64,000 nucleotides of DNA from Eledone cirrhosa (GCA_964016885.1 OZ024741.1:80352001-80416000), one strand, 5' to 3'. Shown: positions 7,501 through 31,724, counted from the stretch's first letter. Program-made: numbers and translations. Notes: a model not told the origin generated them from the sequence alone.

Positions 7501-9321
7501 TCTATTTTTTATTTGATTGTTTAAGTCTAATACAGGACTACACAAACGGTTTAAAATATACCACCAATTACAATATTATGATTCTATTGTGAGCATAGGC
7601 TAGGATGTAGTTAGTTGGTTTAAAATCTTTTATTTTACTGCCATTATTTTTTTCTTTTGTTTATTTCTAAATGACTGTTACAAAGGATATTGACTTGATT
7701 TATGAAATATAGTTGACGGAATGGACATCTGAGCTATAACTTGTTTCCTTAGCCTTCAGTTAGTTATTTGAACTATCTCTTCAATAAAGGAGAGAGTATA
7801 CTTTCCTAGTACATTAAAGTATGAAAGCATGCTTTAATATAGTTAGCATTATATCACATTTTGCTGACCGAATATGGAAAGACAATGTTAGGATATTTGG
7901 TCATGGTTCAAATAATAATTTTAAAAAATTGAATGTCATGTTCACTTAAATATGAACCTATTTTCAATATGTTAGTGGGTGATTGGTAGTTGTAATTTGG
8001 CTTGTGGTTGTTACATTATCCAAGTGAAACAACTATATAGATATTACTTCAGCTATTTCAACAGCACTGATCATTTTAGTTACCATTTCATCATTGAAAT
8101 ATTCTAGCTATGTTAGGCTTACTCTATTTTAATTCAAACTGTTCTCTTTGATGTGTTTTTGGTTCTAACCACTATAAAGTGTCAAAAAATATTTTTAATT
8201 TGATTGTAGAAAACCCCATCTTTTAATAATTTTAATACTTTCGTTAAAAAATCTATCATTTCCCCCTTATTATTTAAAGACACTTTTATATCCTATTCCA
8301 TAACTATATTACTTATCAATCATTCATTCTTAGTTTAGTTAATTCAATTATTAGTTGTTTGTTTTTTCCATTGTACATCTTTCTTCAACAGATACCCATT
8401 TCTGTTAAATAAATTTCCATCTCCATCTACATCATAATAATCTAATATTGTTTTCTGCCTTAGTATATCCAATGGCTTTCATATGAACTAAATGTAATTA
8501 TTTAAGCTTGTTTTTAAATGTATTTATGGTTTACTTGATAAATGTGAACATCAATACTGCCTAGGAAACATGATTTAGTTTCTAGATGTGTGTTGTTTAG
8601 TTTAAATAAACTTCACATATTTTCCTTTTTGTTCTGTCTGTAATAAAATATTGTTTTACGTTTGTATAAAAATCTATGTTGGTGCTCATCATATCAGACC
8701 TCCTCTGAATGCTGCTGTCCACAATTGCTGCCTTCAAAATTACACACACACACACAATTTTTTTAAAAGTAAAGTCTTTCCATCAGTCATATGGTTATTT
8801 TTCTTTTTACAACTTTTAGTTTGTTTGAAAAGAATTGAATACGATTCATGTTTTGCTATTTTAATTTAGTGAGAAAATGTTACGTAAACGTCTCTTGTGA
8901 AAATTATTTGGTGCTAGTTTTGTTTGCGATCATGTCTATTGACAAAGCAAAGGCCAGGCATGTTACCTAGCCCATATTAACTTTAGAACGTCCAAGTTTG
9001 AGTTAGCCCCCTCCCTCTTTTTTTTTTTTCGTGTGGTTTAGATAAGTTCAGCAACAGGTTCTTAGCACTAGTTCATTTCTATCTGCCTGTAGTTGGTTGC
9101 CTTTCACTTTTGCAACATTTGTTGATCGAAAGGAGTTTCTTTACATTTTAGCTATCTTTCGCTTTTATCCCAGTGCAGTTAATCTGGTTTGCCATTCAAG
9201 CTGCCTCATTCTTTATTTTGAATGTTAAATGATATTTGTCTGTACTTCTTCATTCAGTTTAGTTTTCCTTCCACCTGTTGCTGTATTTCGATCCGAATTT
9301 TTTTTTTCTTCTCAATATCAG

Positions 9322-10351
9322 GTCCAAAGACGATTGCCGGAAGTTAAAAAAATACAGTGAGGATATACCTTCATGGTTGTCGACAGATTTCAAGAGTAAC
9401 TTTCGGATGTCGTCTGTGACGTTTTGGAAAGTGTTCAGCTACCTGCGTACGTGTCCTGAAGCAATTGAGATGGCACGAGGGAGCCAACCAGAGACCTTGG
9501 AAAAAAGTTTGTTATGTGTTCTATGGTATATGGGTTCCCAAGATTCCTTGTCAGAAATCTGTCAACGTTTTTCAATAACAGAAGGGTCTTTCCTTAACCG
9601 CCGAAACAAAATAACGAAAGCACTTCTTTCAAAGTCAAAAGAGAATCTCATTCGATGGCCTGAGAAAGACTCTGATAAGCAAATGATAGCTCAAGAATTT
9701 GAAACTCTGAGTAATTTAAAGAATGTTATTGGTGTCTTGGACACTACACACATTCAGGTGAAAGCTCTAGACAACGATAGGGAGAAATTTTACAATAAAA
9801 ATGGATACTATTCAGTGAAGTTAATTGCTGCCTGTCAGCGGGATATGAGGTTTACATTCTGTTCAACCGGACATGCTGGTCGTCTCCACGATTTTCAGAC
9901 TCTTGTTGACAGTCACCTTCTGGAGCAGGGCTCATATTTGTGCAACTCGCACCATTTGGTTGGTGATGCTGCCTTCCCCCTGTTCGATTGGTTGATCACC
10001 CCTTACACTTGTGAGTCAAAAACAGAAGCCCAACAGTACTACAACACTTGCTTGAATACTGTCCTAAAAGTCATAACACGTGCCTTTGGTCTACTACATG
10101 GACGGTTCCGGAGACTAAAGGTCATTGAGTCTACGAATCTCAAAACCATCGTGGATATAATTCACTTAGCATGTGTCCTACATAACTTCTGTATTGGCTG
10201 TGATGATACAGGTGAAGAGTATATGGTATATGAAGTGGAAGATGAAGGGGATGATGCCCTACCGGTGACCAATTTACCCCCACTCCCTGACAGTGTCAAA
10301 ATTAAGAGAGACATTATTTGCCGGAACCTTTCAATAGGGAGACAGCGCTAG
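9322..10351 (+). CDS. Harbinger/PIF transposase-derived (HARBI1/ALP1-like, DDE_Tnp_4) coding exon; probable spliced terminal exon
   Basis: Uninterrupted frame to TAG at 10349-10351. Harbinger motifs in order: DFKSNFRMS, NVIGVLDTTHI (GAIDGTHI), FYNKNGYYS, GRLHD, LVGDAAFPLFDWLITPY, RAFGLLHGRFRRL, ACVLHNFC. Preceded by the acceptor tttttttcttctcaatatcag (AG at 9320-9321, phase 2). First in-frame ATG (9407) is inside the conserved N-terminal motif. Confidence 0.9.
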
Positions 10352-10646
10352 TTTTTAATAATGGGCTGTGGTTGCACTTTAAGAATGTTTGGGTATTTGT
10401 ATGTATGTGTGACTGGGTGTGGATATATATATATGTATACATATGTATGTGTAATTGTGTGTATATATGTAGGCATATGCGTGTAAATATATAAATATGT
10501 ATGTGTATGCATATATATACACCCACAAGCCAATTTATGTAAACACGTATTTGTGTGTTTGTATACATGTTTGTGTGTGTGTGTGTGTATATATATATGG
10601 TATCTAGTGTATGTATCTGTGTATGCATAACATCAGAATCAATGAC

Positions 10647-10686
10647 AATAAATTAATCTGTACAATATTAGTATACTAAAAATAAA
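10647..10686 (+). promoter_or_regulatory. Candidate polyadenylation signals of the Harbinger exon
   Basis: AATAAA at 10647-10652 and 10681-10686, about 300 nt after the stop, followed by a T-rich tract (10715-10780). AATAAA is common in AT-rich DNA. Confidence 0.45.
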
Positions 10687-31250: not shown

Positions 31251-31261
31251 ACATATACATA

Positions 31262-31309
<48 letters not shown>

Positions 31310-31645
31310 GTCGAGTGAGAGAATCATTGAAAGAAGGAGAGAGGGAGACACTGGGAGAATGAGAGAGAGAGAGTGAGAGAGAGGGAAATAAGATGACTAC
31401 AATGGAGAAGCTGCTTTAAAAATCATTTGATTATATATACTGTTGCGGTAATATACCCCTGTAGAATTGGTTAAACTTTTACAGTTGGAATTCTTTGATT
31501 TATTTATTTGTTTATTTGCTTGATTGCTTTGGCTTTGGCTTTGCTTTGCTTTTGTTTGTTTTTGAGCAGGAATGATTTCCTAATGATTCGTAGTAGAGCT
31601 GCTCTGGCGTTATATAATGTATACGCTTTTTCTTCAAATTTCCAG

Positions 31646-31724
31646 CTCAAAATCCAGCATCCAACTATTGAAAGTGAAGCGGGAGAAGACAAGCAGTTCC
31701 TGTTGTAATGGGGGACCGACTCTG
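31646..31724 (+). CDS. TIF1-family gene, linker exon (phase 2 in, phase 0 out): xSKSSIQLLKVKREKTSSSCCNGGPTL
   Basis: Acceptor ttttcttcaaatttccag, donor CTG|gtaagc; 79 nt = 1+78, joining in frame to the phase-0 exon at 41016. Contains the SUMO consensus VKRE. Confidence 0.7.

Follow-up and report, generated by a model that had tools for sequence, protein, structure and literature searches.

An in-frame Harbinger transposase exon in a TIF1/TRIM33 gene of coleoid cephalopods

A stretch of 64,000 nucleotides from the octopod Eledone cirrhosa (GCA_964016885.1 OZ024741.1:80352001-80416000, or G000:C2:80352001-80416000 in our numbering; hereafter the window) contains an open reading frame (ORF) for a Harbinger transposase upstream of exons that encode the PHD finger and bromodomain of a TIF1/TRIM33-like gene. 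Is this frame a transposon that happens to occupy an intron, or has it become part of the gene? An earlier reading, made from the sequence alone (the sequence-only reading), had proposed that the locus makes two isoforms, in which the RING, B-boxes and coiled coil (RBCC) end either in PHD-bromodomain exons or in the transposase. We find that splicing joins exon 4 of this TIF1 gene to the Harbinger exon in frame, and we consider it probable that a Harbinger element inserted into TIF1 intron 4 before octopods and cuttlefish separated, its transposase having been kept as an alternative last exon. The region searched upstream of the window spans 200 kb, and negative positions below are genome positions minus 80352000.

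The Harbinger frame is open from stop to stop across 9263-10351 on the + strand. A match to Pfam DDE_Tnp_4 (E 2.9e-26) together with Harbinger relatives in protein searches identifies it as PIF/Harbinger-derived. Its earliest methionine is residue 29, inside the NFRM motif at 9407, and upstream of this lies a polypyrimidine tract ending in a CAG acceptor (9299-9321, CAG at 9319-9321), so that the earlier description of an exon opening at a strong acceptor with no ATG ahead of this motif proved accurate. Read from the AG at 9320-9321, the coding part of the predicted alternative last exon has 342 codons and a stop (9322-10351), in line with the previous estimate of about 343 intact codons. The acceptor is in phase 2, is used in run X5 (below) and scores 8.6 in a crude weight matrix, compared with 6.8 and 4.8 for two host acceptors. 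On the 3' side we place the start of a putative 3' untranslated region at 10352-10700. The exon was said to have its own stop and AATAAA signals. The stop holds; AATAAA does occur, at 10647 and 10681, yet 10352-13500 contains 15 AATAAA/ATTAAA sites, so that this pair does not exceed chance expectation and cannot fix the 3' end. We therefore rejected the AATAAA sites as evidence, such sites being too common in these 3.1 kb. A contig from run X2 runs 1061 nt beyond 10344 without fitting the window sequence.

The junction itself was looked for in sequencing runs and in protein records. Among 24 runs listed, none is recorded as RNA (X1-X18 are only guessed to be RNA), and four were compared with positions 8800-10400. 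Contig 6 of run X5, from a related species, is 1122 nt long and lies on 9321-10344 at a depth of 59.8, with a loose 5' end of 29 letters. This loose end has a single placement in 264 kb, where 27 of its 29 letters match at -10894 and are followed by a G and a GTAAGT donor at -10865; the chance expectation of such a placement is 5e-8. Two coleoid proteins show the same arrangement. XP_014777370.1 (P0281), a 386-aa Octopus bimaculoides RefSeq record, consists of 43 residues of exon 4, a W and then the Harbinger domain, while P0288, which belongs with Sepia pharaonis CAE1312692.1 to one 90% cluster, carries 66 exon 4 residues ahead of an identical W junction. Since these two proteins share the exon 4-W-Harbinger junction, the fusion point is common to octopods and the cuttlefish-type lineage. 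Thus the proposal that junctions should land at 9322 is borne out by one contig and two proteins, all of which join a host exon with a phase-2 donor to this position. The sequence-only reading had one upstream donor for both acceptors; this shared phase-2 donor stands, with the correction that it belongs to exon 4, two exons past the coiled coil, 20.2 kb upstream and outside the window. Exon 2, which encodes the coiled coil, was rejected as a direct donor because the 5' end of the X5 contig maps to exon 4.

The host is a ten-exon TIF1/TRIM33 gene on the + strand with the Harbinger frame inside its intron 4. Exon 1, with the N-terminal half of the RING, ends at G000:C2:80301120 (-50880; phase 1 out), and exon 2 (C2:80326530-80327949, -25470 to -24051; phase 1 to 2) encodes the end of the RING, B-box 1, B-box 2, the coiled coil and a polyglutamine tract. 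The RBCC exons therefore do lie upstream on the + strand, as had been claimed. A predicted Q/P-rich exon 3 (C2:80339683-80339981, -12317 to -12019; phase 2 to 1) begins with a LAQL motif resembling that of vertebrate TIF1, and exon 4 (C2:80340916-80341135 = L005:8916-9135, -11084 to -10865; phase 1 to 2) ends in RPASSD plus 2 nt before its GTAAGT donor. Intron 4 then extends 20,186 nt from GT to AG at the Harbinger acceptor, its in-window part up to that point being 1-9321. Exon 5, with a VKxE motif, lies at 31646-31724 (phase 2 in, 0 out). It is followed by exon 6 with the start of the PHD finger (41016-41500), exon 7 with the PHD end and linker (42358-42484), exon 8 with the bromodomain start (44492-44566), exon 9 with further bromodomain (47459-47611) and exon 10, whose coding part up to the stop is 49306-49500, all on the + strand. 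The Harbinger frame thus precedes the PHD-bromodomain exons on the same strand within a long intron, just as first described. The best protein matches of the RING/B-box/coiled-coil exons are TRIM33/TIF1 proteins (up to 42% identity), and the end of exon 4 together with exon 5 (RPASSD..VKRE) parallels RPSS..VKKE of chiton TRIM33. The RING, two B-boxes, coiled coil (by homology), PHD finger and bromodomain that define a TIF1 protein are present in order on one strand.

Acceptors 9322 and 31646 are both in phase 2, so that one donor can read in frame into either, a point that the sequence-only reading had made and that the assembled chains confirm. Exons 1-2-3-4-5 through 10 give 1053 codons (the predicted PHD-bromodomain isoform) and exons 1-2-3-4-Harbinger give 1025 codons from the RING ATG (the predicted fusion isoform), each with its sole stop at the end. 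The frame upstream in exon 1 may add 768 residues, which would bring the fusion to about 1790 aa from the first ATG. This exon 1 frame (G000:C2:80298645-80301120, L009) is open for 825 codons, is rich in S, T, N and Q with low complexity up to the RING, and has a CpG observed/expected ratio near 1. The X5 contig begins exactly 30 letters into exon 4, and given that the assembly behind it uses 31-mers (k=31), which is our assumption, this start points to a branch after the exon 4 donor to a second acceptor that does not begin with G. Exon 5 begins with C; intron retention would begin with GT like the Harbinger exon. From this 30-letter overhang we infer that exon 4 also splices to a non-G acceptor such as exon 5. 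Exons 5-10 are intact and in frame.

Based on these frames, the exon 4 donor would choose between 9322 and 31646. It is likely that the Harbinger transcript starts at exon 1 and encodes a RING-Bbox-Bbox-coiled coil-Q-rich-Harbinger protein beside the PHD-bromodomain form. The fusion isoform would keep the RING, B-boxes, coiled coil and Q-rich middle and would lose the VKxE motif, PHD finger and bromodomain. The two-isoform proposal is supported in its architecture, with exons 1-3 of the Harbinger transcript being deduced and not observed.

Several observations weigh against our explanation. The part seen joined to the Harbinger exon is limited to exon 4 (43-66 aa, without a Pfam domain), and the junction appears in one of the four runs compared; X2 is unspliced across the acceptor (depth 4), X22 gives a 151-nt intronic contig and X3 gives nothing. 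The X5 junction comes from a related species and not from the window's own Eledone cirrhosa. The start of the XP_014777370.1 model is a Met within exon 4; its name, 'putative nuclease HARBI1', is that of a stand-alone gene, and it carries no isoform number. Exon 4 alone has no significant BLAST match to other TIF1 proteins (best E 0.34), and its own acceptor is AAG, a weaker type. Among cluster representatives, a fused long protein is found in none of 1785 candidates of 600-2000 aa, PF13359 is absent from the best 120 of 796 RBCC matches, and no long fusion occurs in the best 150 from the Harbinger search. These long-protein negatives are weak because the searches cover representatives only, with no cephalopod TIF1 among them, and in both of the coleoid clusters examined a member exceeded the representative in length. 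Exact look-up of four of our own ORFs, aimed at a cephalopod TIF1 cluster, found none of the four in the protein collection. Finally, no Myb gene was found near the Harbinger exon. The six PF13873 and nine PF13837 Myb/SANT matches lie elsewhere in the genome, and the existence of such genes counts in favor of the partner considered below.

These points raise the alternative that only a short protein is made, with an internal promoter, either within exon 4 or immediately upstream of it, giving 43 exon 4 residues plus the Harbinger part (386 aa) and no RBCC. XP_014777370.1 has exactly that shape, and the failure of the representative searches to return a long fused protein is in keeping with it. 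A parallel exists in CSB-PGBD3, a primate fusion of ERCC6 with a piggyBac transposase in its intron 5, whose GenBank mRNAs start within CSB exon 5 (PMC2268245). However, the long CSB-PGBD3 fusion proved abundant (PMC2268245). At the present locus exons 3-4 have no CpG-rich start signature: CpG observed/expected ratios are 0.05-0.7 around them, whereas five of the seven bins surrounding exon 1 reach 0.9-1.2. Intron 3 is just 934 nt long. Transcripts from exon 1 that reach the exon 4 donor meet the 9322 acceptor 22 kb ahead of exon 5. In addition, exon 4 lacks an in-frame Met upstream of residue 30, and 14 of the 22 residues preceding it match P0288, which argues against an internal start, although conservation in the parental isoform could explain this too. 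We believe that a short protein as the sole product is unlikely; a short nested HARBI1-like form could coexist with the long fusion, as in CSB-PGBD3.

A recent or active Harbinger transposon occupying the intron by chance would account for an intact ORF with a Harbinger signature. Nevertheless, a DNA search of the 3.0-Gb genome returns one match for the ORF, i.e. a single copy, and a protein search returns three matches among seven candidates, the two non-self loci being 31-32% identical, while at least four PF13359 loci were found in the genome. Of 293 inverted-repeat pairs in 6200-13400, the 25 longest include no close flanking pair, which agrees with the earlier failure to see flanking terminal inverted repeats (TIRs); those that straddle the ORF have AT-rich or microsatellite arms with 72-86% complementarity, and one arm or both lie 0.5 kb or more away. 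None of the features expected of an active element was found: TIRs among these pairs, a linked Myb-like ORF, multiple copies or an intact DDE triad. The many near-identical TIR-flanked copies that would have spoken for a recent transposon are replaced by one DNA copy genome-wide, an orthologous junction is found in a cuttlefish-type protein, and the catalytic E is lost. We rejected this explanation, whose probability is negligible.

Conservation of the exon argues further for a retained host exon. The ORF is 93% identical to a protein that clusters with the Octopus bimaculoides record and 76-78% identical across the octopod/cuttlefish split, with the frame open in both, compared with 23-36% for non-coleoid matches. 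Octopods and cuttlefish separated roughly 270 My ago. In a quick tree of 53 rows without bootstrap, seven coleoid proteins form a single clade (SH-aLRT 100) that sits on a long stem, divides into octopod and cuttlefish-type subgroups and is distinct from the other three DDE loci of the genome. Among the best 150 representatives nothing falls between 76% and 40% identity, so that no orthologue was found outside coleoids, though one may sit inside a 50% cluster. Given the low non-coleoid identity and a clade of its own on a long stem, the coleoid exon looks like a domestication separate from vertebrate HARBI1. Of 115 difference rows, 40 (those in 9577-10000 common to X2 and X5) comprise 30 synonymous and 10 non-synonymous changes, giving an omega (dN/dS) of about 0.07 (Fisher p 2e-14), a value that the remaining 75 rows could shift; counts for the entire ORF are in rough agreement, with 25 residue changes to P0002 and, in X5, 107 nucleotide differences. 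By these sequence comparisons the Harbinger exon is under purifying selection. A test by dN/dS and single-copy conservation had been suggested with the original proposal, and its outcome is favorable: omega is low and the single-copy exon is kept in octopods and the cuttlefish-type lineage.

A candidate splice-regulatory region, 9167-9534 on the + strand, extends across the Harbinger acceptor and includes 155 nt of intron and the first 213 nt of the exon. In X2, 5 of 367 letters differ in this zone compared with 93 of 839 elsewhere (p 2e-10, or 2e-5 if all five are exonic). No stable RNA fold was found in it (z -0.15). Because the zone shows much stronger conservation than the exon does elsewhere, its sequence suggests that splicing at the 9322 acceptor is regulated. 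Extra CAG sites at 9171-9173 and 9176-9178 would give early stops, and low-depth unspliced contigs cover part of the zone in three runs. This conservation is also what would be expected if the main role of the exon were regulated early termination, which would adjust TIF1 dose or yield an RBCC-only decoy, with the transposase sequence as a passenger. Yet the frame stays open throughout in octopods and cuttlefish, omega is about 0.07 and identity across the split is 76-78%, and we regard a passenger transposase as very improbable.

If the transposase part of the retained exon is selected as protein, what could it do? It keeps D140, D190 and D215, but E252, which is E in 117 of 147 relatives, is T in all five coleoid proteins aligned (that of the window and four others). 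Further conserved positions are changed (R159K, K160N, Q168I, R248L and K259H), and the domain is probably catalytically dead as judged from these residues. A solved-structure search with an 80-row profile of the domain gave a single chance-level match (E 0.14), and an ESM Atlas search gave generic DDE_Tnp_4 clusters only. One explanation is that the long fusion exists but its Harbinger part acts on nucleic acid directly, by residual nuclease or structure-specific DNA binding, with no Myb/SANT partner. The three retained aspartates and most of the conserved framework are in its favor, as one metal site may survive. The E252T change and the five other substitutions count against it, as does the observation that a single triad change strongly cuts transposition of rice Ping (PMC4671723). 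We consider such direct action improbable.

We prefer, tentatively and by analogy, a pseudo-nuclease adaptor: the Harbinger part may attach to a DNA-binding protein of the Myb/SANT trihelix kind, in the way that HARBI1 attaches to NAIF1. TRIM proteins dimerise through the coiled coil, and coiled-coil dimers could possibly bring the PHD-bromodomain isoform along to sites chosen by Myb/SANT proteins. The fusion isoform would itself bring the TIF1 scaffold to DNA sites by sequence rather than by histone marks. Harbinger transposases bind a Myb-like partner via their N-terminus, as HARBI1 binds NAIF1 (PMC9392472); ALP1, with a decayed triad, joins PRC2 (PMC4671723); and Bonus, the Drosophila TIF1, works with SetDB1 and NuRD (PMC10672805). 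In its fullest form, a coleoid-ancestral TIF1 splice switch would trade the PHD-bromodomain for a dead Harbinger domain, be addressed via transposon-derived Myb/SANT proteins and have the conserved acceptor element regulate the choice; we offer this as a possibility that is more doubtful than the adaptor by itself. If true, the switch would be an invertebrate counterpart of the targeting of TRIM28 by KRAB zinc fingers in tetrapods, one in which the co-regulator itself contains the transposon part. Three Myb/SANT trihelix genes with a C-terminal charged helix (L030:1222-2160, minus strand; L031:1375-2673; L034:1456-3240) are the best partner candidates. A protein of this type is joined to a Harbinger domain in P0151 (XP_022242643.1) of Limulus polyphemus, a natural Myb-trihelix plus Harbinger transposase fusion of 609 aa.

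The locus is best read as an old, selected host-transposase fusion of the CSB-PGBD3 kind. In CSB-PGBD3 a whole transposase is an alternative 3' terminal exon read in frame with the first exons of a chromatin gene, the parental isoform is kept, and database models start inside the last shared exon (PMC2268245); the coleoid locus shares the last of these features and would share the others. The coleoid fusion differs in that the donor is Harbinger and not piggyBac, the host is an RBCC scaffold and not a SWI/SNF ATPase, and no TIR or target-site duplication is recognised; CSB-PGBD3 is about 43 My old, whereas the present fusion is shared by octopods and cuttlefish. At least 94 host-transposase fusions are described in tetrapods, mostly of DNA-binding domains (76.5%) and often joined to KRAB, and old ones have generally lost the parental transcript (bioRxiv 10.1101/2020.05.07.082677). 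As in the coleoid case, the transposase was captured there by way of alternative splicing, its sequence is under purifying selection and a transposase domain is linked to a transcriptional regulator. In contrast, the coleoid capture is of a catalytic-type domain in an invertebrate and both isoforms appear to persist; and while some KRAB fusions repress via TIF1-beta/KAP1, here the TIF1 co-regulator is itself the host. Harbinger/PIF has no occurrence in the available main text of that study, tables aside. The domesticated Harbinger genes HARBI1/NAIF1, ALP1, HDP1/HDP2 and insect DPLG/APLG share single copy, lack of TIRs and purifying selection with the coleoid exon, and ALP1 also a decayed triad; yet they are stand-alone genes with non-covalent partners, whereas the coleoid exon has no start exon of its own and is wired covalently. 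TIF1 family members (TRIM24/28/33 and Bonus; PMC10672805) match the parental isoform in having RING, two B-boxes, coiled coil, VKxE, PHD and bromodomain; no transposase-ended isoform is among the best 120 RBCC matches or in the literature searched. The available parts of PMC9710019, PMC10027918, PMC8700633 and PMC12988792 make no mention of a TIF1-Harbinger fusion. Targeted literature searches, with supplements and subscription journals outside their scope, gave no description of a TIF1 host with a Harbinger donor, and this combination appears to be new.

TIF1 proteins are central co-regulators, several of which silence transposons. A conserved transposase-ended isoform, if true, would be a lineage-wide rewiring of TIF1 target finding in cephalopods. 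The locus extends host-transposase fusion to an invertebrate lineage, a new host and an apparently new donor superfamily. It also bears on annotation: what is recorded in O. bimaculoides as 'putative nuclease HARBI1' (XP_014777370.1) probably represents the C-terminal end of a TIF1 isoform. The proposal concerns one junction and one exon, which could be removed without touching the parental isoform.

Other transposon-derived sequences were seen in the window and elsewhere in the genome. Broken reverse-transcriptase pieces of retroelements lie antisense in the TIF1 introns (minus strand, by eye, at 4958-6108, 26425-27069, 34052-35173 and 45216-45641), and the earlier remark that RTE coding remnants here are broken agrees with the window translation. 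Two other Harbinger-derived genes apparently have two exons, and each has its own ATG and open frames but decayed catalytic residues. One (L036:6446-6913 plus L002:1399-2379; G000:C6, 26.42 Mb) has D to A at two positions and E to Q, and a close relative in P0152; the other (L038:1976-2395 plus L003:1327-2334; G000:C22, 30.03 Mb, minus strand) has D to N at two positions. From their sequences both are probable stand-alone domestications. The fourth PF13359 locus (L040:2862-3359 and 5844-7112; G000:C6:20.46-20.47 Mb) combines THAP with DDE_Tnp_4 in one gene and falls on a very long branch.

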